From assembly GCA_051003195.1 (NCBI GenBank), contig JBPCLP010000008.1, forward strand, positions 28,154 to 92,153: a DNA stretch of 64,000 nucleotides. The letters are read 5' to 3'. This document shows positions 3,543 through 39,635 of this stretch, piece after piece. Every line of letters starts with the position of its first letter. The stretch's first letter is position 1. The notes beneath the pieces were generated by a model. That model was not told where the DNA came from, ran no database searches, and was given only the letters and a program-made list of their open reading frames with translations. The position numbers and the translations under genes are program-made. This DNA comes from Candidatus Sumerlaeaceae bacterium. Lineage in GTDB: Bacteria; Sumerlaeota; Sumerlaeia; Sumerlaeales; Sumerlaeaceae.

Positions 3543-3629
3543 GTCTACCGTTACTTCGTAATCTGTTCTGTGTGCCGAATCGAGGGTAAGTTTGCGTTGG
3601 TCTGGTAATGAACTACTGATTCGGCACAA
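3543..3629 (+). repeat. REP/MITE-like intergenic palindromic element, copy 1 (about 87 bp)
   Basis: GTCTACCGTTACTTCGTAATC-TGTTCTGTGTGCCGAATCGAGG...ACTACTGATTCGGCACA. Internal 11-bp inverted repeat TGTGCCGAATC/GATTCGGCACA. Near-identical copies at 5731, 33769 and 39579. Confidence 0.85.
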
Positions 3630-3683
3630 TAGGGGGAAGAGTACCCGCGCGAGTGAACTTTCGCGACGGGGGAAGGATTGTAC

Positions 3684-4199
3684 TTACGCGCGTTTTTTGC
3701 GGGAAGCCTTGCGCCGATCCAAAGTCCTATCCGTAGCGCGGAGATAGTTTTCGAAATCCCGTACGAAGCGTTCCTGGCCGCGTGTCTCGATAGACCCCGG
3801 CCGGGCGGCACGCACCAGGTTGATCGCCTCCTCGGCTGTTTTGCCTGACGCGATGAGGTAACATGCGAGCATCGTTCCCGTGCGACCGTAGCCGCCGCGG
3901 CAGTGCACGGTGATCTGGCGTCCTTCCGCGCGCTGCATTTTCGCGAATTCTACAAACTCCTCGGCCTGCTTGAGTGTCGGCGGGTGGAAGTCGGGAATCG
4001 GCAGGTGCAGATAGTGCAGGCCGTGCTCTGCCACCAGGTGCAGAGGAACTCCGTCTTCATCGAGCGATACCAGCGCTTCTGTCCCGCGATCGCGGAGTTC
4101 GGCCAGCGCCTCGCCGCAATCGCCATAGGAGTCGGGATGGCCACAACCGGCCATCTCCCCTTCCAGCAGGTATCCGAAATTGTTAAGCATCGTGTTCAC
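3684..4199 (-). CDS. dual-specificity / tyrosine protein phosphatase (CX5R family)
   Basis: Active-site signature VHCRGGYGRTG (HCxxGxxR) in a 171-aa protein. Confidence 0.8.
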   Translation of the reverse strand: MNTMLNNFGYLLEGEMAGCGHPDSYGDCGEALAELRDRGTEALVSLDEDGVPLHLVAEHGLHYLHLPIPDFHPPTLKQAEEFVEFAKMQRAEGRQITVHCRGGYGRTGTMLACYLIASGKTAEEAINLVRAARPGSIETRGQERFVRDFENYLRATDRTLDRRKASRKKRA

Positions 4200-4280
4200 G
4201 CTCGCCGACGTGCAGGATTCGCGCGGTAATTCACAACAAAAAAGCGGATCATTGCCCGGCTGCTTCGCGGGCTTTCCACA

Positions 4281-4721
4281 TCAGCAGTAGGTGTTGAAGG
4301 CGTTTACGAGATCTTCGGCGACCTGGTCGGCGCTGCGTCCCTCGATGTTGTGACGCTCGAGCATTGTGACGACTTCGCCGTCTTTCAACAGTGCGATTTG
4401 CGGCGAGGAAGGATTGTAGCCTTTGAAATAGGCGCGCGCCTTTGAAACCGCATCTTTGTCGACACCGGCAAATACCGTCACAATTCGATCGGGCTGCTTT
4501 TCATTCCCCAGGGCCTTGGCGACACCCGGGCGAGCGTTTCCGGCGGCGCAGCCGCACACGCTGTTTACGACAACCAGCACGGTACCCTTATTTTCGCCGA
4601 GGACTTCGTCCACCTGGTCTGGTGTGCGCAGATCTTCGACGCCGAGACGCGTCAGTTCCGCGCGCATGGGTTCGGTCATTTCGGGTGGATACCCGGTTGC
4701 CATCTGGAAGAAATTGGACAT
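4281..4721 (-). CDS. bacilliredoxin-like thiol-disulfide oxidoreductase (YphP/YqiW, DUF1094 family)
   Basis: 146 aa with a CGC redox motif (NSVCGCAAGNARP) and overall BrxA/B-like layout. Confidence 0.65.
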   Translation of the reverse strand: MSNFFQMATGYPPEMTEPMRAELTRLGVEDLRTPDQVDEVLGENKGTVLVVVNSVCGCAAGNARPGVAKALGNEKQPDRIVTVFAGVDKDAVSKARAYFKGYNPSSPQIALLKDGEVVTMLERHNIEGRSADQVAEDLVNAFNTYC

Positions 4722-4795
4722 TTCGTTACTCCTTGGTTTTGCAAATCGTGTGTGTTTCGGTTTCGCCTGCCCAGGCTAAAGCCTGCACATCGAAG

Positions 4796-5692
4796 CTATT
4801 TCGCGGCTGCCTTTTCATACACCATTTCACCGTCGGTCGTCACTATCGTGTGGAAACGTGCGATGAGTTCGCGAGTGACGGGGCCGGGTTTGCCGTCGCC
4901 AATGGGACGCCCATCAATTTTCACGACGGGAATGGCCTCGGCAGCGGTGCCGGTAAGGAAGACTTCGTCGGCATCGTAGACTTCGAAGCGTGTGAAGGGT
5001 TCTTCCTTCACGACCATGCCATCCTTTTCAGCGAGTTCCATGATTGCATCGCGCGTGATACCGCGTAGCGCGCCGAGGTAACAAGGTGGGGTCGTGAGCA
5101 CGCCATCCTTCACGAGGAAAACATTGTCGCCCGTACATTCCACAACGAAGCCGTTGTGGTCGAGCATCAGCGCTTCGCGGACATTGGCAAGCTGGCCTTC
5201 CATCTTGGCCATGATGTTGTTGAGGTAATTGCAGCTCTTTACACGCCCGTTCCATGCGGCCACGTTGAAGCGGTTGCTCGGCACGGTCACGATTTCCAGG
5301 CCGTTATCGTAGTCGGACTGCGGGTAGAGCTTGATGCTGGCCGCGATAATGAAAATGGTCGCCTTGGGGCAGAGCCGAGGGTCGAGTCCAAGGTCGCCGG
5401 TGCCGCGCGTGACAACGAGGCGGATGTAGCCGTCGTTGAGTCCATTGGCGCGAATGGTTTCCACGATCGCGTCGCGCAGCTCTTCGTAGCTCATCGGGAT
5501 TTCGAGCCGTATGTATCTCGCGGACGACCAGAGCCGCTCCAGGTGCTGCTTGAGCCGGAATATACAGCCGTCGTAGATGCGGATACCTTCGAATACGCCG
5601 TCGCCGTACAGTACACAATGATCGAAGACGCTGATTTTAGCGTCCTCTTTGTCATAGAGCTGTCCGTCGATCCACACCTTCATCTGCTGCAT
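4796..5692 (-). CDS. ilvE: branched-chain-amino-acid aminotransferase (PLP fold type IV)
   Basis: 298 aa; class IV aminotransferase blocks (YGDGVFEGIRIY, IRLVVTRG, EVFLTGTAAEA). Confidence 0.9.
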   Translation of the reverse strand: MQQMKVWIDGQLYDKEDAKISVFDHCVLYGDGVFEGIRIYDGCIFRLKQHLERLWSSARYIRLEIPMSYEELRDAIVETIRANGLNDGYIRLVVTRGTGDLGLDPRLCPKATIFIIAASIKLYPQSDYDNGLEIVTVPSNRFNVAAWNGRVKSCNYLNNIMAKMEGQLANVREALMLDHNGFVVECTGDNVFLVKDGVLTTPPCYLGALRGITRDAIMELAEKDGMVVKEEPFTRFEVYDADEVFLTGTAAEAIPVVKIDGRPIGDGKPGPVTRELIARFHTIVTTDGEMVYEKAAAK

Positions 5693-5730
5693 CGGGCGTT
5701 TGCCTCCTGGGTTGGTAAAATCCTAGTGTA

Positions 5731-5819
5731 GTCTACCGTTAGTTCGTAATCAGTTCTGTGTGCCGAATCGAGGTCAAGTCTGGCCTTTAGTCCTCGTAAG
5801 GAACTACTGATTCGGCACA
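5731..5819 (+). repeat. REP/MITE-like intergenic element, copy 2
   Basis: About 90% identical to the copy at 3543 over the core. Sits between the ilvE start and the 3' end of the BNR gene. Confidence 0.85.
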
Positions 5820-5948
5820 TCAGTTAGAGCTTTGGATGCGCTTACATTCGCAGGATTTAGGAACCAATGTGTCGGTGCGGTCCCGACCGGACTCCTGCGC
5901 GCAGACTGGTACCTCCAGCAATGCCAGCGCTGAGCCCGGAGAAATTGC

Positions 5949-8900
5949 CTATTTTAGCATCTGCCAGTCGGACGCGGCGGCAACGCTTTGGATGGAGTAC
6001 TGCTCGGCCTTCAGGCTGTAGTTGTCTATGAACCATCCAGTCGGGCCATTTCGCTTTTCTGTGAAGCCGTTCCAGTTGTAAGTAAATACAACCTGCAGCG
6101 TGTGACCGGCCCATACTGCGGGATCGAGCTCCAGAGTCGTCAGCGTGTAAGGCAGCCCAGGACCGCCGTTCACATACCCGTCCTGGTTGGGATAGGCTGT
6201 ATATGTGCCGTCGAATTTCCCAGTGTAGCCATTTTTAATTTCCAGTACACCGGCAAGTGCACTGGCCATGTCCTGCTGCGAGCCGCCGTCTCTCAGCAGG
6301 AAAACTTTGCCGCCGGCCAGGCCGTAAAGCGATGACGCGTTTGTCTGATCAAACGAGAGGACAATGCGATTCGCGGTGGCAGGAATCAGGCTGACGGGAG
6401 ACTTTAACTGGTCGAGCTGATATTGATAGGGAAACGGCTCTTCGAAATGGGCGCACGTTGCGCCAGTCGCGGGTTTGGAGGTATCTGCCACCCACGCAGA
6501 ATCCACTCCGTTCAAGTTCGTCTGCGTAAATGCTCCGAAGCCACTCTCAAACCCTTCTGAAATATCCAGCAGCGTGGCAGGCACGCCGGAGCGTAACGTG
6601 ACCGGAAGGCTTGCCGCAAAATTGCCTAGATTGCTGGACAGCGTGAGCACCAGGTTGAGCTGGCAGCCGGCCGGAATAGAATCGGGAGTCGTGAACTCGA
6701 ATGCGGTAGAATTGCCCTGGGGGGCGCCACCCTGCGGTAGCGTCGGGTAAACTGACGCGGCCTGTATCACGCCTGCTTCGGTGCTGAAGCTGGCCAGTGC
6801 GGCCACCACACCAGTGGCGTCTTCGGAACCGACATTGCTCAGGTTAATCGTAAGGCGTATTCGTTCATTCCGGTCGATGCTTCCATTGCCATTTCCGCCG
6901 ATGCCGGAGTCGTCGATGGTAACGGAATCGAGCTTGATCTCAGGCCTGCCAACCATCCAGACGCCGCGTCCATGCGTGCCTGCGAGAAGTATCGAACGCG
7001 CATTGTCGATGCAGAGATCATCGACAGCGGAATTGGGTAACCCGGTGGAATAGTTCTGCCAGGAGGTGCCACCTGTCGTGGTACGGTACACGCCGACTTC
7101 TGTACCCAGGTACCACACGGAGGGGTTTGTGGAATCCAACGCAACACAGTTGACCGCGATTGCTGGAAAACCGGCGCTTCGGTTGGTGACGATGGGGCTG
7201 CCGGCTGCATTGGATATCTCATAAACCTGGTTGCTGGTAAAGCGGTAGAACACTGCGATGAAGTGATCAGGGTTTGTTGGATCCACTGCGATATCGGAAC
7301 AGTAGGAGCCATTAGGGTGCGTCGTAACAAGCGTCCATGCCGGGAGAACGGCCGACATGTTGCTGGTGCGAAAGACTTTGCCGCTTTCGAATCCAAGGTA
7401 GCAAATCTCGCCGTTGCCTGGCGCGAACGCGACGGCGGATATTTCATTGCCGGGATCAAGCTTGCCCGTCACATCAGCCCAGGTTGCACCGGTGCGCGCG
7501 GCGGAATTGCGCAGGAGCGAATCTCCGCCGAGCACGAGCATGTTCGGATTTGTGCTGTTCAGTGCGCCCTTTGCATAGAACGGGAAGGAATACGAACTGC
7601 TGGGGAACTGCGTGCTATTCGGCGAGATTTCACTCCAGCCATACCCCTGGATCGAACTGCGATATACGGTGTCGAAGATGTAGCCATTATATACATAACG
7701 GCTGTCGGTTGGGTCCCATAAAGTAAAGCCGCCATCGCCTGCGTTCACCAGGCTCCAAATGCCGGAGCCCAGGTAGCGGCATGTTCCATTATCCTGAGTA
7801 CCTGCGAGGATCTCGAACCTGGTTGGGTGGAGCGCGACCGCGTAGTTGTTGACCTGCAGCAAACCGAGCCCGGTGTTCAGGCTAACCCAGTCCGACACTC
7901 CGGGAGCATCTGTATAAAAAAGGCCGCCGTCGTTGCAGTCATAGAAGCGTGCGCCATCGGGTCGAAACAGTCCAAACTGATGATCGGCATGAAGCGACCT
8001 GTTACTTGCGACGTTTATAAAGTTGGAACTGCCATTCGTGGATCGATAAAGTGGCTGGCTGCCAGAAATATAAATCTCGTTTTCATTAACCGGATTTACC
8101 GCGACATACACGTTGTAGAAGAACTGGCCAGATCCTGAGCTCGCGTTGTAACTGCTGTCGATCTGGTTCCAGATGGCCCCTCCGTTTGTGGACTTGTAGA
8201 TTTTCAATTTGTCGTAATCAGGCGTCTGGGTCGTGAAATCAGTGTCGGCGTTAAAGACGGCGTACATGATGTTCGGGTTGGAAGGAGCCTGTACGAGATC
8301 GGCCAGTCCATCGCGGTGATTTGTGGCAATGCCCGTGTTCTGCTGTACCCAGGTGACACCGTTGTTTGTGGACTTGTAGAGACCTGAAGAGCCGGACGTG
8401 GAACTGGTTCGCGTCGCCCACCAAACCTGATTATTGCTCAAGTCCTGGATCACATTGTTAAAGCGTCCAGCCTGCGCGAGCGTAATGGACTGGAAGGCAT
8501 CGCTGGTGATGTAAATCCCGGCGAACGTCGCGGCAACAATCCTGCGCGTGGGTCCCGTTAAAGTGGTACGGTCGATCGTGATCTGCGCAATTTTTGAGCT
8601 TGCGAGGGTAGCGGACTGCCGGCTCACCCAGTTCGCACCGCTGTCGGTGGAGACGAGAATACCGGCCCCGGATTTCGCATCGCCCGACAACACGGCCTCG
8701 CCGGTGCCAACGTAGATTTCATTCGGAGCACCCTGGTTGACGGTAATACAGCCCGTCGCGAGGCTCGGCTGGTTGTCGGTGAGTGGTGTCCACGTCGCAC
8801 CATGGTTTGTTGTCTTCCACACACCGCCGTCTGCACCGCCGATGTAGAGAGTCTGGTAGGTGGGATCCGACGGATCAAATGCGGCGGACGAAATGCGACC

Positions 8901-9500
8901 GGACACCTTGCACTTGGGGCTGAAGGAGTTGGCCTGGCTTCCGACGACGGGTTGGCCATTGTATACAACGTTTGGACCGAGCTCGACCCAACGTGACCCG
9001 AAGATTTGCCCGGCGGGAAGCAGAGGAGTCTCGGGATCGGCGGGTGGTCCAACAGGCGCTGCCGTCGACTGGTCGCGCGACGGCAATTGTGGCAATGCGC
9101 GCAGCACCGGTTTGTTGCTGCGGATGTTTTCGATGCCGAGCAGCCGTAATCTCGCATGGCTGACCTTATTCTCGTCGGCCGCTAACCGGCGCCTTTTGGA
9201 TTCGTGCTGCAAGCGCCTGAAGACCATCGATTCGTCTTCCTCGCGTTCGACGACTTGCCCGGGAGCGGCGATGTCTCTCTCATCCTGGTCCCCCTTCACC
9301 GTAATTTTGGCAGGAGGGGTGGGCGGCACGGCCAGGGTGTTCAGATCGCTGGACGCGGCTGCAGGGAAAATTTGAGCATGTGCTGCCGAGCTAAGTCCAA
9401 TCGACAAAGCAAGCCAGACTTGCAGCGTGCCGCGGCTGCGGCTCGAAATTGCATCGCTCATGCGTAACGCATACACTTCAGAGTCAAAGGCATGACACAA
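5949..9500 (-). CDS. large secreted BNR/Asp-box repeat beta-propeller protein (sortilin/Vps10- or GH74-like) with C-terminal CARDB/Ig-like domains; signal peptide likely begins at the internal Met at 9461
   Basis: 1183 aa. Multiple S-x-D-x-G-x-T-W Asp-box motifs (TTNHGATW, STDSGANW, STNNGVTW, STNGGAIW, TTTGGTSW). Hydrophobic signal sequence LALSIGLSSAAHAQ. Confidence 0.8.
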   Translation of the reverse strand: MCHAFDSEVYALRMSDAISSRSRGTLQVWLALSIGLSSAAHAQIFPAAASSDLNTLAVPPTPPAKITVKGDQDERDIAAPGQVVEREEDESMVFRRLQHESKRRRLAADENKVSHARLRLLGIENIRSNKPVLRALPQLPSRDQSTAAPVGPPADPETPLLPAGQIFGSRWVELGPNVVYNGQPVVGSQANSFSPKCKVSGRISSAAFDPSDPTYQTLYIGGADGGVWKTTNHGATWTPLTDNQPSLATGCITVNQGAPNEIYVGTGEAVLSGDAKSGAGILVSTDSGANWVSRQSATLASSKIAQITIDRTTLTGPTRRIVAATFAGIYITSDAFQSITLAQAGRFNNVIQDLSNNQVWWATRTSSTSGSSGLYKSTNNGVTWVQQNTGIATNHRDGLADLVQAPSNPNIMYAVFNADTDFTTQTPDYDKLKIYKSTNGGAIWNQIDSSYNASSGSGQFFYNVYVAVNPVNENEIYISGSQPLYRSTNGSSNFINVASNRSLHADHQFGLFRPDGARFYDCNDGGLFYTDAPGVSDWVSLNTGLGLLQVNNYAVALHPTRFEILAGTQDNGTCRYLGSGIWSLVNAGDGGFTLWDPTDSRYVYNGYIFDTVYRSSIQGYGWSEISPNSTQFPSSSYSFPFYAKGALNSTNPNMLVLGGDSLLRNSAARTGATWADVTGKLDPGNEISAVAFAPGNGEICYLGFESGKVFRTSNMSAVLPAWTLVTTHPNGSYCSDIAVDPTNPDHFIAVFYRFTSNQVYEISNAAGSPIVTNRSAGFPAIAVNCVALDSTNPSVWYLGTEVGVYRTTTGGTSWQNYSTGLPNSAVDDLCIDNARSILLAGTHGRGVWMVGRPEIKLDSVTIDDSGIGGNGNGSIDRNERIRLTINLSNVGSEDATGVVAALASFSTEAGVIQAASVYPTLPQGGAPQGNSTAFEFTTPDSIPAGCQLNLVLTLSSNLGNFAASLPVTLRSGVPATLLDISEGFESGFGAFTQTNLNGVDSAWVADTSKPATGATCAHFEEPFPYQYQLDQLKSPVSLIPATANRIVLSFDQTNASSLYGLAGGKVFLLRDGGSQQDMASALAGVLEIKNGYTGKFDGTYTAYPNQDGYVNGGPGLPYTLTTLELDPAVWAGHTLQVVFTYNWNGFTEKRNGPTGWFIDNYSLKAEQYSIQSVAAASDWQMLK

Positions 9501-9622
9501 TCATGTGACAACCCGGCGCGGGCAACCTTAAAGGATTAAGGAACAATGGATGGAAAGCTGCCTGACGCAGAGAATCCAGATTGTTTGAACGCAGAGTGCA
9601 GCATGAGGTATAGTGTGCTTCG

Positions 9623-10579: not shown

Positions 10580-10640
10580 TGCCGAAAACACAACATGTCT
10601 TCACATGCTCTCTTTTTAGTAATCCCGGTTTGCGAAAAGG

Positions 10641-11513
10641 ATGAACCACATCGATTCAACAGGCAGTGCGGCAGGCGTGAACATAATGCCGCAGGACGGC
10701 ATGCGGGAAGTGGAGCCGCTAAGCGGCATCCGCGCATTCGGTTTGGCAGCGGGCACACTGTGGCAGCGCGAACTGGTGCGATTTTTTCGGCAGCCTTCGC
10801 GTGTGATTGGCGCGTTTGCATCGCCACTGGTCTTCTGGCTGCTCATCGGTTCGGGGCTGGGCCGATCTTTTCAGCCACAGAATTCCGCCGGTGCGGCGGG
10901 GGGCGATTACCTGCAGTACTTTTTTGCGGGAACGCTCCTCCTGATTCTGCTGTTTACCGCGATCTTTTCAACGATATCGCTGATCCAGGACCGGCGCGAA
11001 GGATTTTTGCAGGGAGTCATGGTAGCGCCCATTCCGCGAGGTGCGATTGTCATGGGGAAAGTGCTTGGCGGAACCACCCTGGCGATGTTGCAGGGCCTGC
11101 TGTTTCTTTTGCTGGCGCCCCTGGCGGGCATCTCCGTCGGCCCGTCGACAGGTTTCCTCGTAGCCGGTGCGAGTTTCCTGGTGGCATTTGGACTCACGGC
11201 GCTGGGATTTGTGCTGGCCTGGCCGATGGAAAGCATCCAGGGCTTTCATGCGGTGATGAACCTCGTACTGATGCCGATGTGGCTTCTAAGCGGAGCGTTG
11301 TTTCCGGCCTCGGGCGCGAGTGGCTGGGTTCGTGCACTGATGCTGGTCAATCCGCTGACATACGGACACTCGCTGATACGTCGCGCCCTGGCGCCTGACA
11401 TCGTGGTCTCGCCGGGTCTCGGGGTGTCGCTCGGCATTACCGTGGGTTTCGCGATCGCCACATTTGCAGGTGCGTGGATCATGGCATCGCGCAAGAGGAG
11501 AATGCCGCTGTGA
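10641..11513 (+). CDS. ABC-2 family transporter permease (6 TM)
   Basis: Immediately downstream of the ATPase gene. Six hydrophobic segments in ABC-2 architecture. Confidence 0.8.
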   Translation: MNHIDSTGSAAGVNIMPQDGMREVEPLSGIRAFGLAAGTLWQRELVRFFRQPSRVIGAFASPLVFWLLIGSGLGRSFQPQNSAGAAGGDYLQYFFAGTLLLILLFTAIFSTISLIQDRREGFLQGVMVAPIPRGAIVMGKVLGGTTLAMLQGLLFLLLAPLAGISVGPSTGFLVAGASFLVAFGLTALGFVLAWPMESIQGFHAVMNLVLMPMWLLSGALFPASGASGWVRALMLVNPLTYGHSLIRRALAPDIVVSPGLGVSLGITVGFAIATFAGAWIMASRKRRMPL

Positions 11514-11530
11514 GCAGCGAAGGCGGAGAG

Positions 11531-12268
11531 ATGATGACGGAGTCGGCAGATGGTCAAGCAAGCGCGGCCGAAGTTGGGTCGACTCGCCAGCGGTCGTCAT
11601 CGCCGAAAGGCGCGTGGCTGGCGTGGATTGCGTTCACCGTGTTGATTATCGGCGTTGGCGCCGCGGCGATGTTTCAGAAACTACAGGGAGCGCGGCTCGG
11701 CGAGCCGCTCCCGAAGCTCGGGGCTGTTCCGGCATTTGGCTTTACGAACGAGAAAGGGACGTCCGTTACGCTGGCGGACCTGAAGGGGCGGCCCTGGGTG
11801 GTCGATTTTATTTTTACGCGGTGCGGTGGCCAATGCCCCCTGATGACGAGGCACATGATGGGCCTGCAGGGCTGGTTGCGGGACAAAGGGCATACCGAAG
11901 TGCAACTGGTGAGCGTGACGGTAGACCCTGAAACGGACACTCCTGAAAAGCTGGCGGAGTATGGAAAAACTTTCCACGCAGATCCCGGACAATGGACTTT
12001 TCTGACCGCTGCTAAACCTGAGATTTACGATTTGATTACCACCGGTTTTAAGCTGGGCGTAGAGGAAAACCGGGACAAGCCGGTGACGGAGATGTTTGTT
12101 CACAGTAATAAATTTGCGCTGGTGGATGCGGAGGGGCAGATCCGCGGCTATTTCGTGCTGGAGGAAGAACCGGAAATGAAGCGCATGCAGGCAGCAATCC
12201 GGCGCATCGGCATCGAACAGCGGGAGTCGCGGAAAAACAGCACCAGTGCCGACGGAAAGGACTTCTAG
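11531..12268 (+). CDS. SCO1/SenC family copper chaperone / thiol-disulfide oxidoreductase
   Basis: Thioredoxin-like fold with CxxxC (FTRCGGQCP) and a conserved His downstream. N-terminal TM anchor. RBS AAGGCGGAGAG precedes the ATG at 11531. The track's longer ORF from 11474 overlaps the permease. Confidence 0.8.
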   Translation: MMTESADGQASAAEVGSTRQRSSSPKGAWLAWIAFTVLIIGVGAAAMFQKLQGARLGEPLPKLGAVPAFGFTNEKGTSVTLADLKGRPWVVDFIFTRCGGQCPLMTRHMMGLQGWLRDKGHTEVQLVSVTVDPETDTPEKLAEYGKTFHADPGQWTFLTAAKPEIYDLITTGFKLGVEENRDKPVTEMFVHSNKFALVDAEGQIRGYFVLEEEPEMKRMQAAIRRIGIEQRESRKNSTSADGKDF

Positions 12269-12367
12269 TGTGGCGAACCAGAAGTTCATATCCACGTATC
12301 GATGTGATTCTGCGCTCGTTCGGCACACAGAACCAGTGAACGGATTTATGGGACACCGCACCAGAAC

Positions 12368-12808
12368 GTGCTGAATCGTCCTCTCAATGATTTGCCGGGT
12401 TTGAACGCATGCCTCAATGCGACCAGTGCGATGCTCCTGATTCTCGCATGGGTTTTCATTCGCCGCGGAATGGTACGGGCGCACGCGTATTGTATTACTG
12501 CCGCGCTGGCGAGTTCCGCTGCGTTCCTGACCTCCTATCTATACTACCATTTTGTGCTGCACGGACGCACGCCTTTCGGGGGTAGTGGGATCGTTCGGAC
12601 GATTTATTATAGCATCCTGCTTACGCATACCGTGCTGGCGATGGTCATTGTGCCGTTGATCGTGATGGCGCTCGTTCACGCTGCGAGGCGGCACTGGGAC
12701 AAACATCGCCGACTGGCTCGATGGACGATGCCGCTGTGGTTGTATGTTTCTGTGACGGGTGTCCTGGTGTACTGGATGCTTTACCAGATGCCCCCGGTGT
12801 TGCGATGA
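12368..12808 (+). CDS. DUF420 family membrane protein (YozB-like, usually linked to SCO/cytochrome oxidase assembly)
   Basis: 146-aa polytopic membrane protein with conserved His residues, located directly after the SCO gene. Confidence 0.65.
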   Translation: MLNRPLNDLPGLNACLNATSAMLLILAWVFIRRGMVRAHAYCITAALASSAAFLTSYLYYHFVLHGRTPFGGSGIVRTIYYSILLTHTVLAMVIVPLIVMALVHAARRHWDKHRRLARWTMPLWLYVSVTGVLVYWMLYQMPPVLR

Positions 12809-13089: not shown

Positions 13090-13132
13090 ATTAGCCTGTT
13101 GCATTAGTGGTGGATGGCGTCCGCCTGAACGT

Positions 13133-14599: not shown

Positions 14600-14607
14600 A
14601 TAAGAGT

Positions 14608-14640
14608 CGGCACACCAGAGAACTGGTGTGCCGAATTTGT
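14608..14640. terminator. bidirectional rho-independent-type terminator hairpin between convergent genes
   Basis: CGGCACACCA-gagaac-TGGTGTGCCG followed by AATTTGT. Shares the GTGTGCCGAA core of the REP-like element. Confidence 0.6.
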
Positions 14641-14642
14641 AA

Positions 14643-15023: not shown

Positions 15024-15116
15024 TTGCCCCGCCTCCTTTCTGCAGTCTTCTAATTAACAGTTATAACTCAAAATGAGGTAAGTTCGTCAAATGGATTTTG
15101 CGCGAGCTCCGGAGGG

Positions 15117-29897: not shown

Positions 29898-29954
29898 GTA
29901 GCAATCGGCTTCAGCCTCGCCGATCTTCATAGTAATCTGGTTCTCAGTAAAACG

Positions 29955-31412: not shown

Positions 31413-31592
31413 TAGCTCTGTATCGTCTTCCTGTATTGCCTGGTCCCAGGCTCAGTACACTGCCCGTACGTCTACCAATTGGCATCAAGTTCGTATTCGC
31501 TGCGGCGATCAACCCCTCGCCAGCAAATATTGCGCAAGTATGTAAAAATCTCTTTTGACGTGGCCCTGCCGGATTCCGCAACTGGATGCCTC

Positions 31593-32915
31593 ATGAGCAG
31601 CGCTCCCCTTCAATTAACTGGAATTGCGTGCCGGCGTCTGCGCACACCCGGGATGCTGCTGGAGAACGTTTTTATCGAATTCGACGGCCCGCGAGTCTCC
31701 GTGGTCGGCGACTTCAGTTCTTCCTGGTTGCCGCCGGGTGCCTTCAATGCGCGGGATGAAGAGCTGCTCGTGGTGCCGGGATTCGTGGATGTGCATGTGC
31801 ATGGGGGAGGCGGAATCGATTTCCTGACGGCCGACGAAGCGGGCCTTGCCACTGTTTCAGCCACGGCGGCGAGCGGCGGCTGCACAACGATGGTCGCAAC
31901 CACCACCCTCGCCAATGATGACGAGGGGCTCGAGCGTTTCACTGAGTTTGTCAGGATACTTCGCAACACGTCGCCGCCACGATACCGGCAGGGCCGGGTT
32001 GAATCAAGTGCCAGAAAGCCCGCCGCCGGGGCTGCTACAGCGCAGGGCAGTGCTGCAGCAGTGGCTGAGGCGGTTGCGGAAGACGAAGTGTGTTCATTAC
32101 CCGGCACGCGCATCATGGGCATTCACCTTGAAGGGCCGTTCCTGAACCCGGAACGGCGGGGTGCGTTTACGAACCGGTTTTTACGCCCGGTTGATCTCAA
32201 GGTCGCCGAAAAGGTGCTCGAAATCTGTGGTGACCTGCTGCTGAAGGTCACGCTGGCCCCGGAGCTGCCAGGAGGAGCACAGCTGGTGCAGTTGCTGACG
32301 AGTTCCCGAAGCGCGCCTGTGGAGGTGACGCTTGGCCATACCACATGCGACTACGAGCTTGGCATCAGAATGTTTGGGAATTCCCACGTTCGGCAAATTA
32401 CCCACGTCTTCAACGCAATGAGCGGGCTACACCACCGCACGCCAAACCTGATCACGGCCGCACTACTGGACGATCGCGTCTGCCTCGAAATTATTCCTGA
32501 TGGCCTGCATGTCGCCCCACCGGTTGTGAAGCTCCTTCACAAAATTGTCGGCGCAAAGCGGCTGATCGGCACCACCGATGGGGCGAGCGCGGCGGGTACG
32601 CCACCAGGCAGCTCGTTTGAAAGCTTTAGCGGCCATGCGGTGGTTGGATCCGATTGCGGAGTGCGGCGCACAACGGACCATGTACTGGTAGGAAGCGCGG
32701 CTTTAATGAATGACGTGTATGAACGCCTGCAAACGCTCGCTGGCATCCCGGCAGAAGATGCTTTGCTTATGTGCACGCAGAACCCGGCACAGTCCATCAA
32801 CCGCTTTCATCAAATTGGCAGTATCGATAAAGCCAAGCGCGCTGACTTTGCAATTTTACGTGGCACAACCGTCGAGGCGACTGTGCGTGATGGCGTTTTG
32901 GTTTATCAAAAATAA
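31593..32915 (+). CDS. nagA: N-acetylglucosamine-6-phosphate deacetylase with an internal Ala-rich low-complexity insertion
   Basis: VVPGFVDVHVHGGGGIDF and GIHLEGPFLNPERRGA blocks typical of NagA amidohydrolase. Start chosen at the Met at 31593; the ORF track begins at 31479. Confidence 0.8.
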   Translation: MSSAPLQLTGIACRRLRTPGMLLENVFIEFDGPRVSVVGDFSSSWLPPGAFNARDEELLVVPGFVDVHVHGGGGIDFLTADEAGLATVSATAASGGCTTMVATTTLANDDEGLERFTEFVRILRNTSPPRYRQGRVESSARKPAAGAATAQGSAAAVAEAVAEDEVCSLPGTRIMGIHLEGPFLNPERRGAFTNRFLRPVDLKVAEKVLEICGDLLLKVTLAPELPGGAQLVQLLTSSRSAPVEVTLGHTTCDYELGIRMFGNSHVRQITHVFNAMSGLHHRTPNLITAALLDDRVCLEIIPDGLHVAPPVVKLLHKIVGAKRLIGTTDGASAAGTPPGSSFESFSGHAVVGSDCGVRRTTDHVLVGSAALMNDVYERLQTLAGIPAEDALLMCTQNPAQSINRFHQIGSIDKAKRADFAILRGTTVEATVRDGVLVYQK

Positions 32916-33765
32916 CAAGCCGTCGCGTGCTTTAGCCGTTGTTGTTTTATGGTGCCTGGTCGCTGGGTTGTGTGCAGCGACTTACGGTGACTCGTCCACT
33001 ACGAGAGTCGTTTCGCTTGTGCCTGGGCTTACAGAAACATGTTTCGCGATAGGCGCGGGACCCCAGGTGGTCGGTGTGAGCGACTACTGCGCATACCCTG
33101 CCGAAGCCAGGACTCGTCCGCGCGTGGGCGGACTCAGCAATCCTCGGCTCGAGCAACTGCTTTTGCTGCGGCCAACGGTCATTCTGCTCTATCGCTCACA
33201 GGCTGACTTTGCGCATAAATTGCGCATCTTGAAAATAGATTGCCGGCTGTTCGCGTTGGATCGACTTTCGGATATCTACGAGGCTGCTGAGCAACTGGGC
33301 GGCATTACTGGAAAGCGAGCCGAGGCGCATGTGCTGGTGCGATCGATGCGCGAGCAATTTGAAGCGATGCACGCACGTACCAGTGAAACCGCTGCTGTGC
33401 GGGCGGTGGTACTAGTCAGCCGGGATCCTGGAGACCTGCGGAATCTGTTCCAGGCAGGGCCAAAGAACTTTCTTGGTGAACTGATGAACCTTGCGGGCGG
33501 TTCTCACGCAATTGCTACAGATGCTGCGATTACAAAGGAACAACTGATCCTCGGGAATCCACAGGTCATCATTGACCTGTCGGGCGGTGAAAGCGCATCC
33601 ACGGCGGAAGCAAAAGAGGCCGCATTGCGCGTATGGGCGCAATTACCGACAATAGATGCTGTGAAGAACCATCACGTCTACTATCCCGCGGCTGCCCATG
33701 CGTTGGTTCCGGGACCGTACCTGGTTGAAGCAGCAAAAGAATTCGAGCGCATGCTGCACCGCTAG
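32890..33765 (+). CDS. periplasmic substrate-binding protein, TroA/BtuF-like (Fe3+-siderophore/cobalamin type ABC PBP)
   Basis: Signal peptide (ALAVVVLWCLVAGLCAA). VVSLVPGLTETCFAIGAGPQVVGVSDYC block typical of cluster A-2 binding proteins. Start overlaps the nagA 3' end by 26 nt. Confidence 0.7.
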   Translation: MAFWFIKNNKPSRALAVVVLWCLVAGLCAATYGDSSTTRVVSLVPGLTETCFAIGAGPQVVGVSDYCAYPAEARTRPRVGGLSNPRLEQLLLLRPTVILLYRSQADFAHKLRILKIDCRLFALDRLSDIYEAAEQLGGITGKRAEAHVLVRSMREQFEAMHARTSETAAVRAVVLVSRDPGDLRNLFQAGPKNFLGELMNLAGGSHAIATDAAITKEQLILGNPQVIIDLSGGESASTAEAKEAALRVWAQLPTIDAVKNHHVYYPAAAHALVPGPYLVEAAKEFERMLHR

Positions 33766-33768
33766 CGT

Positions 33769-33857
33769 GGTCCACTGTTAGTTCGTAATCAGTTCTGTGT
33801 ACCAAATCGAGGTCAAGTCCGCCCTTTGGTCTGGTAAGCAACTACCGATTCGGCACA
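33769..33857 (+). repeat. REP/MITE-like intergenic element, copy 3
   Basis: GTCCACTGTTAGTTCGTAATCAGTTCTGTGTACCAAATCGAGGTCAAG...ACTACCGATTCGGCACA, between convergent genes. Confidence 0.85.
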
Positions 33858-33879
33858 CTTGTCACCAGGCGTCAAAGTC

Positions 33880-36800
33880 TCATGCCGAGGCTGCTACGGG
33901 CTCCATCTCTTCGATCTCGCGCACAATTTCATGGTGTTCGATTTCATCAAGCTTAATGCTGACCACGCGGCTGACGCCCTGCTCTTCCATCGTTACGCCG
34001 TAGATCGTGTTGGCGAGATTCATCGTCTGCTTGTTATGCGTGATGATAATGAACTGGGTTGTGTCCGCGAACTCGCGCACAAGGTCTTTGAAACGCTCAA
34101 TGTTTTTGTCGTCGAGCGGTGCGTCGATTTCGTCGAGAATGCAGAACGGGCTCGGCTTGCGCATAAAGATCGCAAACAACAGCGCGACTGCGGTGAGTGC
34201 CTTCTCACCGCCGGAAAGCAGGGAAATATGCTGCGGCTTCTTGCCGGGGGGCTGCGCCACGATATCGATCCCACCTTCGAGTACGCCGTTTTCCTCAGTC
34301 AGAAGCAGGTCGGCTCTTCCTCCACCAAACAGGCGCCGGTACACCTGCTCGAAGTTGGCGCGAATTTCAGCAAACGCGGTGGCGAAAAGATCCTTTGTCG
34401 TTTCGTCGATCTTCGCAATGGTTTCCGCGAGCAGGTTCTTGGCATCCAGGAGGTCCTTCTCCTGCGCGGTCAGGAAGTCCAGGCGTGAATTTGCCTCGTT
34501 GAACTCGTCAATTGCCCCCACGTGAACGGGGCCCATTCCATCGATTGTGGCGCGAATCTCCTGGATGCGTGTTGCAATCTCGTCGGGTGTACGAAGACGC
34601 GCGAGCGCTACTTCAACGGCGAGATCTGCATTGTGAGCAATGATTTCTGAGCGGGCCTGCTCATCGCCTGCTGCGGAATCCGATGCTTCATCTGCCAAGG
34701 CAGTAATGTCGTGAATGACCGCGACGTCCGCTGTTGCTGCATCCGGGTTCTCCGGGGTGTTTTCGACAGCGTCCTCTGAAGAGAGGGCAGAGTTCTCGTT
34801 TAACTCAGGCTCTGGGAAGAGGACGCGCTGGATTACATCGTCGAGCACCAGCCCAAATTTTTCCTGCGCCTGCACGTTGATGTTGTCGAGCTGCAGGGTG
34901 TACTCTGTGCGCTTCAATTCCACTTCGTGCAACTCGTTCTGCGCCTCGTTGTAATCGCGCTGAAGCACCTGCGCGTGCTCGCTGAGTTTACGCAGGTCCA
35001 GATGGACGTTTTCCTTGCGCTGGTTCTCCTGCGTAAGCTGCGCCGAAAGGCTTTGCTGGTCTACCTGCAACTTCGCAAGCTGCTCGTGCAACTGCGACAG
35101 CTCGCCTGCGCACTCCGATTGTGTCACATCCATGCGCTCAATTTCGGCGCGCTTGTCAGCCTGCGCCTGCACCAGGCGCTGGCCCTCGCGTTCACCGCTC
35201 GCAATGCGCTCGCGAAGGTTCTTTAAGCGCTCCGTACCGGTCGAGATTGCGATCATCAGCTCGTTAACAAGTCGACCAGCCTCAGCCACTTCATGTTGTT
35301 TTGCTGTCGCAGTTTCCTCAATGCCCTGGAGCTGTTCCTCAAGAGCAGCTGCATTGGCGGCCAATTGCTCCAGCAGACCTGAACCCTCATCCTGCGTGTT
35401 TCGGTGTTGCTCAACCTGCTGCTGCATTCCGGCACGGCGCGTTTCAAGCCGTTCCAGCTGCTGTGCTTTCTCGGAGGCGCGGTGGTCCACCACCTCGAAG
35501 TCCTTACGCAGGCGGGCTGCCTCAATTTCCTGCTGATGAGCTTCGCGCGACAGGCGTTCCGTGCTGTCACGCAATTCGCCAAGGCTTCCCTTAAGGTGCG
35601 AAACGCGTTGCTCGGTCTCCTGCTCGCGGCTGCGCAGGTGCACGAGACGATCCGCCAGTTCTTTCACTTCGCGTGTGCGGTTGAGAAGACCCGTTGCCTT
35701 AACACTTCCGCCCGTCATGGCTCCGTGTGCAGATACCATCTCTCCATCGAGCGTAACAAACTTCGTGCGGATACCCCGCCGCTCCAGAGCGACCGCGACA
35801 TCCAGGTTCTCAACCACAACGACGTTCCCCAGCAGGTACTGGACAACCTTTTGGATGCGAGTATCGTATTTCACGAGATCGGTTGCAAACCCGACAACGC
35901 CCGGCTCGGCAACCACCTGCCGCAGATTATAATTATTTTCGCGGCCTTCGATTAGATCAAGCGGCAGAAAAGTCGCGCGCCCGACACGTGACTCCTTCAG
36001 CCAGCGGATGGCCGCTTTGCCCATGTCGGAATTATCCACAACGATGTCCTGCGCCTGACTTCCCAGGGCGACCTCGATTGCGAGCTCGTGCTCACGCTGC
36101 GCTTCCAGCAGTGTGGATACCACACCCACCAGTCCGTGCAGCTCACCGCGCTTGCCGGCAGACATGACTTCCTTCACACCGCGGTAATAGCCCTCAAAGT
36201 TTGCCTGTAAGTCGGCCAACGCTTCGTGCCGGCTCTGGCACTCATGCGCGGCGCGGCGAGCCTGCTCGAGTTCCATGCTGAGATTGTAGTGCTCAAGGTC
36301 GCGCGTTTTGAATTCATCGCGCGCGGCCGCCGCTGCCTCACGAAGACGTTCCCGCTGGATTTCGGACTGCTCCGCAGCGCCACGCTTGTCGTCGCATTCG
36401 ACTTTGAGCAATTCGATCTGTTCGCGCAACATTCCGAGCTCGCTGTCGCTCTGTTCGATCTCATGGATCAGCTTTTCTTCCATTACATGAGCGACGCGCA
36501 CTTCGTTTTCTTTCTCCAGCCGTGCGCGTGTTGCAGTGCTGATTTCCTGTCGAAGGCGCACCATGTCAGAACTTGCGGCGTCGCTGTCGCCCTTAAGCGT
36601 CTCGTAATCCGATTTGCGCTGCGCGTGTTCGGCCAGCAGCCGCTCAAGTTCGGCTTCTTTTTCCTGGGTTTCGGCAGCGAACTGTGCCGTTGCTTCCTGC
36701 AGCTGTTTTGCGTTTTCATCCAGCTCGCGAATCTGTGAGTCGAGCTGCTCGCGCCGTTCGGCGCTGTTGGCCTGCCGCTGTTCCAAAAGTGCGATGCGTC

Positions 36801-37707
36801 CCTGGACTTCCTGCAGATCGCGGTTAAGCTCGTAATTCAGTGCCTGTGTCTCTTCGACCGCCTGTTGCAGTTCGTCAGCCTGTGTGCGATACGATAACTG
36901 TTCCTCGTCGATCCGCGAAAGCTCATTGCGGAAATTCTGTACGCGCTCAAACAGCTCCTGGTAATGCGCTTCGCTGGATGCGCTGCTCTCGCGAAATGCA
37001 TAGTAACGCCGGACGAGCAGTTCCATCTCAAGTTGCTTAAGTTCCTGGGAGAGCTGCTTGTATCGCTCGGCTTTGTTGGCCTGCCGCTTGAGGCTGTTGC
37101 ACTGGCGCCGTACTTCGTTTATCAAATCCGCCAGGCGCAGTAAGTCGTCATCCGTGCGGTTCAGCTTGTGCAGCGCCTCGTCTTTGCGCGCCTTGTACTT
37201 TGAGATGCCTGCGGCTTCGTCAAAAATGGCGCGCCGCTCTAATGGCTTGGAGTTGATGATCGCGTCGACTTTGCCCTGCTCCAACACCGAATAGCTGTCG
37301 GTGCCGATACCGGTATCCATGAGATTGGTCGTTATATCTTTTAGCCGGCACTGAGTCTTGTTGAGCGAATACTCGCTTTCGCCAGTCCGGAACAGCCGCC
37401 TTGCGATTTCGACATCGTCAAAATCAAGCGGGAGGAATCGGCCCTCGTTGTTTAAGGTAAGGCTGACACGCGACATGCCCATGGCCTTCTGGCCCCCTGA
37501 GCCATTGAAGATTACATCTCCCATGCGACTGCCACGCAAACTCTTTGCACTCTGCTCGCCCAATACCCATCGTATAGCGTCGAAAACATTAGACTTACCA
37601 CATCCGTTAGGGCCAACAATGACCGTCACACCGGGATGAAAATCGATGGTGGTCTTATTGGCAAAGCTCTTAAAGCCGTGGATCTCCATCCGCTTGAAAA
37701 ACTGCAT
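33880..37707 (-). CDS. smc: chromosome segregation protein SMC
   Basis: 1275 aa. N-terminal Walker A (GPNGCGKSN), long coiled coils, hinge, C-terminal signature LSGGEKALTAVALLFAI and Walker B ILDEIDAPLD. Confidence 0.95.
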   Translation of the reverse strand: MQFFKRMEIHGFKSFANKTTIDFHPGVTVIVGPNGCGKSNVFDAIRWVLGEQSAKSLRGSRMGDVIFNGSGGQKAMGMSRVSLTLNNEGRFLPLDFDDVEIARRLFRTGESEYSLNKTQCRLKDITTNLMDTGIGTDSYSVLEQGKVDAIINSKPLERRAIFDEAAGISKYKARKDEALHKLNRTDDDLLRLADLINEVRRQCNSLKRQANKAERYKQLSQELKQLEMELLVRRYYAFRESSASSEAHYQELFERVQNFRNELSRIDEEQLSYRTQADELQQAVEETQALNYELNRDLQEVQGRIALLEQRQANSAERREQLDSQIRELDENAKQLQEATAQFAAETQEKEAELERLLAEHAQRKSDYETLKGDSDAASSDMVRLRQEISTATRARLEKENEVRVAHVMEEKLIHEIEQSDSELGMLREQIELLKVECDDKRGAAEQSEIQRERLREAAAAARDEFKTRDLEHYNLSMELEQARRAAHECQSRHEALADLQANFEGYYRGVKEVMSAGKRGELHGLVGVVSTLLEAQREHELAIEVALGSQAQDIVVDNSDMGKAAIRWLKESRVGRATFLPLDLIEGRENNYNLRQVVAEPGVVGFATDLVKYDTRIQKVVQYLLGNVVVVENLDVAVALERRGIRTKFVTLDGEMVSAHGAMTGGSVKATGLLNRTREVKELADRLVHLRSREQETEQRVSHLKGSLGELRDSTERLSREAHQQEIEAARLRKDFEVVDHRASEKAQQLERLETRRAGMQQQVEQHRNTQDEGSGLLEQLAANAAALEEQLQGIEETATAKQHEVAEAGRLVNELMIAISTGTERLKNLRERIASGEREGQRLVQAQADKRAEIERMDVTQSECAGELSQLHEQLAKLQVDQQSLSAQLTQENQRKENVHLDLRKLSEHAQVLQRDYNEAQNELHEVELKRTEYTLQLDNINVQAQEKFGLVLDDVIQRVLFPEPELNENSALSSEDAVENTPENPDAATADVAVIHDITALADEASDSAAGDEQARSEIIAHNADLAVEVALARLRTPDEIATRIQEIRATIDGMGPVHVGAIDEFNEANSRLDFLTAQEKDLLDAKNLLAETIAKIDETTKDLFATAFAEIRANFEQVYRRLFGGGRADLLLTEENGVLEGGIDIVAQPPGKKPQHISLLSGGEKALTAVALLFAIFMRKPSPFCILDEIDAPLDDKNIERFKDLVREFADTTQFIIITHNKQTMNLANTIYGVTMEEQGVSRVVSIKLDEIEHHEIVREIEEMEPVAASA

Positions 37708-37929
37708 TAATTTTCCTCTTGGGGTATGGTAAGCTGAGAGAAATCAGCAAAAATGAAGGGGCGCGCCTGCGCGCGGCAGCTTGTGGATAACTCCCCTTCA
37801 GATGATACAAACGCGTACTGTTGCGATTCGAAATCCAATTGCAACACTTTTTATGCGACTGAGTACAATATATTGTACTTCACGCAACGCCTGTGGCCAT
37901 ATATGTGTAAGGTATTTGAATTCCGTACT

Positions 37930-38343
37930 CTATGTTGTACCTTGGGTCCGCCGCCTTTTCTCGGCTGCCCTATGCAAAAGCTTCGCATTTTTGAGATTGG
38001 CTTTTGAGGCAATGTCAAAGATGTCGCCGACCAGTGGAATCAAGCCTATGAGCCAGTCGACACCGACGTTCACGCCCATCCGGAACACCAGCGCACGGCC
38101 GAATCCGTGACGTTTGGCGACGTACATGGGGTAAACCGACGGCAATAGCGCCAGTGTGTCGCCGACGACAGGGATAAGGCCGGCAATTGCATCCGCGCCA
38201 AAGCGAATCCCAAACAGTGAGAATTGACTGTCCATCAACTGCGCGAGTGTCTGCACGCGCTTCAAGTCGGCATCCAGGTCCGTTCTTGTGCGCTCGATCG
38301 GCACCGCCTCGAGTACTTCTACTTCAGGTTCAAGTTCAGCCAC
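37930..38343 (-). CDS. DUF4112 domain membrane protein
   Basis: GADAIAGLIPVVGD...IGLIPLVGDIFD twin motif characteristic of DUF4112. Confidence 0.65.
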   Translation of the reverse strand: MAELEPEVEVLEAVPIERTRTDLDADLKRVQTLAQLMDSQFSLFGIRFGADAIAGLIPVVGDTLALLPSVYPMYVAKRHGFGRALVFRMGVNVGVDWLIGLIPLVGDIFDIASKANLKNAKLLHRAAEKRRRTQGTT

Positions 38344-38458
38344 GCAGCGCCTCCGCTCGTTTACATCTGGCAGCGCATTTGATGCGCCGAGCTGAAGCGC
38401 GACAGTGAAGAGTTTGGACTTGCGAGTAAATCACGCACACCAAAGCTTCGCGTTACTT

Positions 38459-39565
38459 ATGAATTTTGGACGCGATTACGATCGTACCGAGCTTCGTCGG
38501 CACTGTGGGTCAACCGGGCAGATCGCCCGGATCACAAGCAGCGAACTGAACGACGGCCGGGAACAGGGGGTACGCTGCCTCGATTTTCGAACCGGCTCCG
38601 GATTCAATTTCACGGTACTGCCCGGCCGTGGAATGGATATCGCCTTTGCGGAATTCCGGGGCCGAAACCTTGCATGGATGTCTCCGACCTCGATTGTCGC
38701 GCCGGAGTACTACGAACCCCAGGGCTGGAACTGGATTCGGGGATTCTTTGGGGGTCTTCTGACCACTTGCGGATTGGTGAATGTCGGAGTGCCCGACACG
38801 CACCGCAACGAGCCTATCGGCGCCCACGGGCGTGTCAGCAACACGCCGGCGTCTAATGTAAGTTATGATACCTTCTGGGTAGAGAACGAGTTGCACCTGG
38901 TTGCCCGTGGAGAGATGCGGGAAGTGCGGCCGCCGCATACCAACCTGCTGCTGCGGCGCACGGTGCATGCGATTGCTGGAGAGCGCCGGCTGGAGATCCG
39001 GGATCGCGTGATCAATGACGGGCCGGAAAAGACGCCGCATCAGATACTCTATCACATCAACGCCGGGTTTCCGGTGGTAAGCGCAATTTCGCATTTTGTT
39101 GCCGGCACGCGGAACGTTACTCCGCGCGACGATGCCGCCGCCGATGCTAAAGAACTCTTTCGACTGTGCCAGGGACCGACACTCGGCTATACAGAAAAAG
39201 TGTATTACCATCAGCTGGTTTGCGGCACGGACGGGCGTTGTTCCGCCGCGGTAATAAATCCGGAGCTCGATGGCGGACTGGGATTATACGTGAAATATGA
39301 TCCTCGCACTCTGCCGACACTCGTTCAGTGGAAAATGATGGGCGAAGGAATGTATGTACTGGGCCTGGAACCGGCGAATACGTACGGTATCGGCAGCGAA
39401 CGCCTTCGCGCACTGGGTTTGCTCAAGACGCTGGAACCGGAAGAGCAGGTTGAGTACACCGTCGAAATCGGCGTGCTCAGCGGCAGCGAAGAAATCGAGG
39501 CGTTTGAAAAGGCTGCGCTCCGCGACGCTCCCACCGAGCCGGAGTACGCATCCATTCTCGTTTAA
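38459..39565 (+). CDS. DUF4432 family protein (aldose-1-epimerase-like fold)
   Basis: N-terminus MNFGRDYDRTELRRHCG...RCLDFRTGSGFNFTVLPGRGMDI matches DUF4432 architecture. The track ORF starts further upstream, at 38405. Confidence 0.65.
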   Translation: MNFGRDYDRTELRRHCGSTGQIARITSSELNDGREQGVRCLDFRTGSGFNFTVLPGRGMDIAFAEFRGRNLAWMSPTSIVAPEYYEPQGWNWIRGFFGGLLTTCGLVNVGVPDTHRNEPIGAHGRVSNTPASNVSYDTFWVENELHLVARGEMREVRPPHTNLLLRRTVHAIAGERRLEIRDRVINDGPEKTPHQILYHINAGFPVVSAISHFVAGTRNVTPRDDAAADAKELFRLCQGPTLGYTEKVYYHQLVCGTDGRCSAAVINPELDGGLGLYVKYDPRTLPTLVQWKMMGEGMYVLGLEPANTYGIGSERLRALGLLKTLEPEEQVEYTVEIGVLSGSEEIEAFEKAALRDAPTEPEYASILV

Positions 39566-39578
39566 GGGCTGACCCAGA

Positions 39579-39634
39579 TATGCCGAATCGACGGGACGTT
39601 TGCCTTTTGGTCTGGTACGAAACTACGGATTCAC
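39579..39634 (+). repeat. REP/MITE-like intergenic element, partial copy 4
   Basis: ATGCCGAATCGACGG...TTTGGTCTGGTACGAAACTACGGATTCA. The right half of the element is conserved; the left half is missing. Confidence 0.7.
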
Positions 39635-39635
39635 C

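Follow-up and report, generated by a model that had tools for sequence, protein, structure and literature searches.

What is the hairpin-forming repeat of about 90 nt that recurs between the genes of a 64-kb stretch of a Candidatus Sumerlaeaceae metagenome-assembled genome (MAG), and why do several of its copies lie directly behind a stop codon? A first-pass annotation of this stretch, to which we refer as the window, had described a family of repeats resembling repetitive extragenic palindromic (REP) sequences or MITEs (miniature transposable elements with inverted repeats), and had named a transcript-end role or mobility as likely explanations. We studied the copies within the window (n = 5) and found that they probably form a small family of miniature, noncoding, nonautonomous DNA transposons, MITE-like in kind, that insert at the tetranucleotide CTAG. 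The suggestion of a small nonautonomous mobile element is therefore the one that we retain, as it is supported by an orthologous site that lacks the element, CTAG-like flanks, imperfect inverted repeats at the termini, and restriction to one lineage within the sequence searched.

The existence of a family of approximately 90-bp repeats at the four sites first listed was confirmed in several ways. The four sites are similar on reading, and their MAFFT alignment spans ~90 columns. A repeat finder independently grouped the four copies (families D5-D7), and the 18-mer AACTACTGATTCGGCACA, with up to 3 mismatches allowed, has 4 matches in the window compared to 0.02 expected from shuffles. A hidden Markov model (HMM) built from the four copies and run with nhmmer recovered its own copies at E values from 2e-18 to 3e-30. 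We call the long-form copies c1, c2, c3, and c5 and the short-form copy c4, and we give for each the strand on which the element reads hairpin first and tail second. The limits first given for the four sites were about right, and we refined them to 3542-3628 (c1), 5727-5819 (c2), 33766-33857 (c3), and 39578-39635 (c4), all on the minus strand. The last of these had been listed as a partial copy at 39579-39634; the copy is real, but it is a short form with CTAG-like flanks of its own. The fifth match of the four-copy HMM lay at 12265-12352 on the opposite strand (E = 0.016), where only an inverted core fragment (12316-12335) had been noted. This sequence is related and inverted, as claimed, but it is a full-length, degenerate copy, c5 (12269-12360, plus strand), that aligns end to end with the others. 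Pairwise identity is 84 to 90% among c1-c3 and 70 to 72% between c5 and c1-c3. A covariance model made from all five copies and run with filters off found nothing further in the window. All five copies are intergenic and lie beside unrelated, ordinary housekeeping genes. They are 58 to 93 nt long, below the 300-bp limit of a miniature element, and noncoding; visual inspection of frames on either strand showed stop codons, and no open reading frame (ORF) is conserved across copies.

Read hairpin first, the long form consists of TGTGCCGAATC, ~40 nt, GATTCGGCACA, and the tail CAGAACTGATTACGAACTAACGGTAGACYACR. Its first 11 nt (TGTGCCGAATC) recur as a perfect inverted copy at positions 52 to 62, and this pair makes up the hairpin stem; the 11-bp internal inverted repeat of the first-pass annotation, TGTGCCGAATC/GATTCGGCACA, is thus present. 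The two 11-bp arms are 40 nt apart, the loop between them is conserved and unpaired, and a GTAG motif is present in both loop and tail. The inverted copy at positions 52 to 62 doubles as the short form's outer end; c4 (58 nt) corresponds to the first 62-nt core alone. The 30-nt tail of the long form closes with a second, weaker inverted copy of the terminus, and the ends of the long form make an imperfect inverted repeat (TGTGCCGAATCAGTAGTTC versus the reverse complement of the other end, TGTAGTCTACCGTTAGTTC), with a majority terminal reading of 5'-TGTG...CACA-3'. These ends match at 11 of 20 positions in c2, 10 of 20 in c3, and 12 of 20 in c5, compared to a random mean of 5.1 (P = 0.006, 0.017, and 0.001, respectively), while c1 is uninformative owing to a terminal deletion. 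Since the short form carries its own CCAG/CTAG flanks, this arrangement suggests a basic unit made up of the 62-nt core and its perfect 11-bp ends, from which the long form derives by gain of a further end.

We found a marked association between the element ends and CTAG. The window contains 11 CTAG sites, whereas base composition predicts 240 and a second-order Markov model predicts 43, and the observed/expected ratio of CTAG is the lowest among all 256 tetranucleotides. It is rare too in related Sumerlaeota contigs, at 0 to 1.6 per kb (loci L005-L016). Four of the 11 sites (5723, 12265, 33762, and 39636) lie immediately next to an element end, which is the hairpin end in c4 and c5 and the tail end in c2 and c3. 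The chance of at least four exact abutments is ~2e-13, or ~4e-10 when 3 nt of slack is allowed. On the hairpin side, the flanking tetranucleotides are CTAT in c1, CTGA in c2, CAAG in c3, and CTAG in c4 and c5; on the other side, they are CTGG in c1 and c4, CTAG in c2 and c3, and CCAG in c5. The six flanks that are not CTAG differ from it by 1 or 2 substitutions, and the ten flanks together match CTAG at 33 of 40 positions, whereas random sites match at 10 ± 2.6 positions and never exceeded 22 in 100,000 trials. All five copies retain the outer C on the hairpin side and the outer G on the opposite side, and the inner bases have decayed. Of the flanks other than CTAG, half read CCAG or CTGG, tetranucleotides that are mildly over-represented in the window (1.11x and 1.18x expectation, respectively). 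Loss of CTAG by T-to-C change on either strand has been proposed for very-short-patch repair in Escherichia coli, and the CCAG and CTGG flanks may represent the decay expected from such removal.

Comparison with relatives identified a site at which the element is missing. Two related loci (L013 and L014) retain the gene order ABC_tran-ABC2_membrane-SCO1-DUF420, with proteins 74% (SCO1) and 69 to 71% (DUF420) identical to those of the window, and have 2 nt between the SCO1 stop codon and the DUF420 ATG. In the window, the same junction measures 99 nt, 92 of which are c5, and the conserved N terminus of DUF420 (MLNRPLNDLP) places the right-hand junction no more than 3 nt away from the start codon. 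The junction in L013 and L014 shows an orthologous site without the element, that is, an insertion polymorphism. In two further loci (L015 and L016), the ilvE protein is 92% identical to that of the window, and L015 also keeps the ilvE-disulfide isomerase-phosphatase gene order, but we found no copy in either of them, whether upstream of ilvE or past the phosphatase gene. When aligned upstream of ilvE, these loci are similar to the window up to a conserved TAG that lies beneath the CTAG flanking c2, and similarity then ends where the window has the element. The presence of this TAG in relatives favors CTAG as the target over CTAG as element sequence. The element was likewise not found after SMC in L005, the closest SMC relative.

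Searches beyond the window returned no further family members. Model R1 found no copies in 148 kb of sequence from relatives. The pattern AATCGANGN{12,35}GTANNNAACTACNGATTC, which matches c1-c4, gave only chance matches in 185,579 genomes (one per species) and in JGI metagenomes, namely, four hits without similarity outside the pattern; these scans demand exact matches at 17 to 21 fixed positions. There were no matches to TGTGCCGAATCNGTAGTT in viral contigs and none by blastn against plasmids and phages. An Rfam search of the whole window at gathering thresholds reported tRNA-Pro alone, and a permissive Rfam search over c1 and c2 gave nothing credible, the best match being mir-3931 at 16.3 bits (E = 1.3). 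Thus, within the sequence searched, the family appears restricted to this lineage. The family is new, but elements of its kind are well known, and the underlying biology is ordinary. In the literature that we searched, we found no paper on repeats in Sumerlaeota, and this would be the first described small mobile-element family for this uncultivated phylum. On the practical side, searches for structured RNAs should mask the copies, MAG assembly and binning call for caution around them, and they may serve as strain markers.

For a transposon of this kind, the element would insert at the palindromic CTAG and leave CTAG-like sequence on either side, and a DDE-type transposase encoded elsewhere in the genome would mobilize it in trans. 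The duplicated sequence could be all 4 bp of CTAG/YTAR, as for MITEPsy1, or the central TA of CTAG, as for IS630, which would give the pattern C-TA-[element]-TA-G. Duplications of 4 bp are general among IS5- and IS701-type elements. Since the outer C and G are kept and the inner bases have decayed, the flanks fit a 4-bp and a TA duplication alike.

The closest likeness that we found is MITEPsy1 of Pseudomonas syringae, an IS5-derived element of 100 nt that takes CTAG or YTAA as its target and generates a 4-nt duplication (PMC3189936). The two elements share a length of ~100 nt, lack of coding capacity, low copy number, narrow host range, and CTAG or CTAG-like sequence on both sides. They are unrelated in sequence, the terminal repeat of MITEPsy1 being GGAAGGTCTGAAAAAGCC compared to TGTGCCGAATC in the Sumerlaeota element, and it is only for MITEPsy1 that clean terminal repeats of 18 nt, exact duplications of 4 nt, a parent insertion sequence (ISPsy2), and transposition itself are documented (PMC3189936). 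IS630 also targets CTAG, of which it duplicates TA (PMC2577343, Table 1, citing Tenzen and Ohtsubo 1991). IS630- and Tc1-mariner-type MITEs share this palindromic target with our element, but we found neither an IS630-family transposase nor a matching terminal repeat in the window. Other small inverted-repeat elements, such as Correia/NEMIS, ERIC, and RUP, are cotranscribed with their neighbors, and their hairpins can change mRNA processing in an orientation-dependent manner. Correia and RUP elements duplicate TA without a CTAG context, and their hosts and sequences differ from those of the Sumerlaeota element.

Several points weigh against a CTAG-targeting transposon. The evidence base is five copies in one 64-kb window, and both the element boundaries and the terminal repeat were defined after inspection of the data. 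Terminal inverted repetition is weak in the long form (50 to 60%). The first-pass annotation had proposed looking for target-site duplications and for a cognate transposase. On the first of these, every copy has CTAG-like flanks but none of the five has an identical pair, the two sides agreeing at 13 of 20 positions, so that a target-site duplication is deduced rather than seen. On the second, we found no transposase, integrase, or Y1 gene among the ~55 ORFs of the window, and a full-length parent element is not known. The relatives that lack c5 are fairly distant, with 26 to 29% protein divergence, and deletion in the lineage of L013 and L014 is formally possible. Since the pattern scans required exact fixed positions, diverged family members would have escaped them. 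Finally, CTAG could be part of the element's own ends instead of its target. The C terminus of the periplasmic binding protein next to c3 (its homologs align to residues 349 to 351 of 351 and extend 0 to 10 residues beyond, with the domain untruncated) would look the same whether CTAG was target or element supplied.

A preference for CTAG also bears on where the copies lie. They had been described as all lying just after stop codons, which holds for c3, c4, and c5 (0 to 22 nt past a stop codon), while for c1 and c2, which occupy intergenic CTAG-like sites, the closest stop codon upstream is 54 and 129 nt away, respectively. Three of the four flanking CTAGs hold TAG stop codons, those of SCO1, the binding protein, and a 189-amino-acid ORF. 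TAG is the stop codon of fifteen genes of the window; C precedes this codon in four of them, and a copy is present at three of these four. CTAG has been nearly purged from the genome, and C+TAG stops are among the few remaining sites, so copies come to sit directly after genes. Thus, post-stop placement is better explained by a CTAG target preference than by a function at transcript ends, which offers a simple mechanistic reason for repeats to accumulate right after stop codons, i.e., survival of a scarce target at TAG stops. Placement between convergent genes, also noted earlier, applies to c1, c3, and c4 but not to c2 and c5, which lie between codirectional genes. The single orientation that was reported describes the four main copies; because c5 is inverted, it does not hold for the family as a whole. 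Nor does copy orientation track GC skew, which is positive over 1 to 28 kb, a region in which c1 and c2 run opposite to c5.

We next consider readings that do not rest on transposition into CTAG or that add to it, starting with the one that survives best. The repeat could be a functional RNA element of 3' untranslated regions (3' UTRs) or intercistronic regions, of mobile origin or not, that acts on the strand complementary to the consensus first reported, as a stabilizing hairpin, a terminator without a U-tract, or a modulator of translation next to the stop codon. Intact copies are more stable than shuffles when folded (z = -3.6 to -5.2 as DNA and -2.9 to -3.7 as RNA), which agrees with the stable hairpin expected earlier, whereas the mutated c3 and c4 fold no better than shuffles on the plus strand. 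Consensus folding backs the 11-bp stem alone, as inner helices are not conserved, and the covariation term is close to zero (+0.32 kcal/mol). All three one-sided stem changes give G.U on the hairpin-first strand and an A.C mismatch on the other, one compensatory pair is present in each of c4 and c5 (GC to AU and UA to CG, respectively), and c3 and c5 fold better on the hairpin-first strand. Against these, the stem has uncompensated breaks (G.G in c4 and c5 and G.A in c4). The two copies with codirectional neighbors, c2 and c5, have hairpin first and tail second on the transcribed strand, and the hairpin lies 0 to 22 nt past a stop codon in three of five copies; orientation is, however, informative in these two copies only (chance ~1/4). 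Taken together, the orientation of these two copies, the one-sided changes, and the compensatory pairs would arise by chance roughly 1 time in 30. With a loop of ~40 nt and no U-tract after the hairpin on either strand, the element does not have the form of an intrinsic terminator, and terminator and promoter scans made no call on any copy. It has no match in Rfam. In relatives, the orthologous genes for SMC, the phosphatase, and SCO1 lack it at their 3' ends, and thus it is not a conserved feature of these genes. The transcript-end role proposed in the first-pass annotation is therefore possible, with weak hints from the orientation of two copies and from a small number of wobble or compensatory substitutions, but we regard an RNA element as an unlikely account of the family. 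A secondary influence of the hairpin on transcripts that carry it is plausible.

The two ideas can be joined. The element might home to C-TAG stops as a transposon and then be retained where the hairpin is oriented on the mRNA, which would make it a regulator specific to this lineage that a transposon delivers to 3' UTRs or intercistronic regions and that acts on mRNA decay, termination, or translation termination in Sumerlaeota. If true, an 11-bp hairpin would be set systematically 0 to 22 nt behind terminating ribosomes. We consider this combination quite unlikely.

The similarity to REP sequences raised in the first-pass annotation deserves separate attention. REPs carry a 5' GT(A/G)G followed directly by a short palindrome (~8 to 14 nt), and in a REPIN, two REPs in inverted arrangement fold into a hairpin that is nearly perfect (PMC3686654, PMC3337134). 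As elements of this type, the copies would be single-strand hairpin substrates of the REP-associated Y1 transposases (RAYTs), which are related to those of IS200/IS605; they would spread without target duplication and be kept as domesticated extragenic palindromes. Our copies resemble REPs and REPINs in being extragenic, ~90 nt long, hairpin forming, lineage specific, and often placed between convergent genes (PMC3116915, PMC3337134, PMC3686654), and the GI REPIN of Pseudomonas fluorescens is of similar size at 89 bp (PMC3337134). The stable hairpin of intact copies, the internal GTAG motifs, and the lack of a perfect target duplication in all five copies would also fit. The layout, in contrast, is not that of a REP. 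GTAG occurs in the loop and tail but never heads a palindrome, there is no inverted-REP doublet, and the sole strong repeat is the 11-bp stem with its 40-nt unpaired conserved loop and asymmetric 30-nt tail. A target-like tetranucleotide is found on both sides, whereas IS200/IS605-type insertion would mark one side only, and we found no Y1_Tnp or RAYT gene among the ORFs of the window. We therefore set the REP identity aside as very unlikely. It is more improbable again that the copies are binding or recombination sites for a host DNA-binding protein, either nucleoid associated or a site-specific recombinase, with selection or gene conversion and not transposition keeping them alike, since conservation of the loop and tail in c1-c4 and a mini-palindrome near the tail end that is altered on both sides together (GTAGACTAC in c2 and GTGGACCAC in c3) are set against the absence of such sites from relatives' loci and from exact-pattern scans (which diverged copies would escape), the different decay of c4 and c5 (loop kept in one and stem in the other, which resembles neutral erosion), and a flanking CTAG signature left unexplained.

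The setting of each copy is as follows, with flanks given on the plus strand. Copy c1 (3542-3628) is an 87-nt long form that has lost ~3 nt near the end of its tail (nhmmer E = 2e-28; covariance model, 104.8 bits). It lies between a convergent MFS_3 gene (1672-3321, plus) and a dual-specificity phosphatase gene (3684-4199, minus) and is flanked by CCAG (3538-3541) and ATAG (3629-3632). The same intergenic region contains, at 3397-3465 on the plus strand, a subthreshold match to Rfam RF01687 (Acido-Lenti-1) at 28.7 bits compared to a gathering score of 37 (E = 9e-5 on a 362-nt region). The first stem of this match holds a 26-nt insertion with the hairpin GGATTCC...GGAATCC. A second 38-nt repeat, 87% identical, follows 75 nt downstream at 3469-3506.

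Copy c2 (5727-5819), a 93-nt long form (E = 1e-29; 104.2 bits), lies between two minus-strand genes, 129 nt past the stop codon of a Sortilin/BNR-like gene (5949-9500) and 34 nt ahead of the ATG of a class IV aminotransferase gene (4796-5692), with CTAG (5723-5726) and TCAG (5820-5823) as flanks. Copy c3 (33766-33857), a 92-nt long form (E = 3e-30; 101.4 bits), is found between convergent genes for the periplasmic binding protein (32710-33765, plus) and SMC (33880-37707, minus). Its flanks are CTAG (33762-33765), the TAG of which is the stop codon of the binding protein gene, and CTTG (33858-33861). The nearest relatives of this SMC outside the source organism are at most 75% identical.

Copy c4 (39578-39635), the 58-nt short form, consists of the hairpin core with a degraded stem and no tail (E = 2e-18; 54 bits). 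Its neighbors are convergent, a DUF4432 gene (38405-39565, plus) and the 189-amino-acid ORF (39636-40205, minus), and its flanks are CCAG (39574-39577) and CTAG (39636-39639), the reverse-strand TAG of which is the stop codon of that ORF. The 92-nt, degenerate c5 (12269-12360) lies between the codirectional SCO1/SenC (11474-12268, plus) and DUF420 (12368-12808, plus) genes, flanked by CTAG (12265-12268), the TAG of which is the SCO1 stop codon, and CCAG (12361-12364). Its covariance model score of 77.8 bits is circular because c5 is part of that model. The database entry for the DUF420 protein (P0121) begins 11 codons past the GTG at 12368, and the conserved N terminus of relatives, MLxRPLNDLP, supports the earlier start at this GTG.

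Two further sites were considered as copies and rejected as unproven. The first is a hairpin at 14607-14634, overlapping the terminator hairpin (14608-14640) that was said to contain a core fragment of the element. It has a perfect 12-bp stem with a 4-nt loop (TCGGCACACCAG AGAA CTGGTGTGCCGA), is located 8 nt past the stop codon of the ORF at 13133-14599 and between convergent ORFs, and is terminator-like with a weak T-run. It has the 11-mer GTGTGCCGAAT in common with the element stem. Its local alignment score falls in the top 1.5% of windows, and neither the HMM nor the covariance model reports a match, so relatedness is unsupported. About 2 chance 11-mer matches are expected for a 90-nt query against 128 kb, and we therefore did not count this hairpin. 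The second is the CTAG at 62436, which could have been a very old relic; its alignment scores are in the top 4 to 5% of windows. This CTAG is the stop of a doubtful 99-amino-acid ORF and follows an AT-rich run, TATAATATATATATT. Past it, within 62436-62510, come AGTCTACCG (the end 9-mer of the element), later CTGGTAA, and CCAG ~70 nt on.

The window also contains other repeats. An inverted repeat of 27 nt, 93% complementary and with arms 86 nt apart (58663-58689 and 58776-58802), is located in a 359-nt gap downstream of a Kelch-repeat gene and has no Rfam match; it may be another hairpin element or a regulatory structure. At 62848-64000, at least 8 tandem repeats of 147 to 150 nt (families D1-D4) are 60 to 80% identical, have a length that is a multiple of three, and continue past the window end, and they probably encode a repeat-domain protein.

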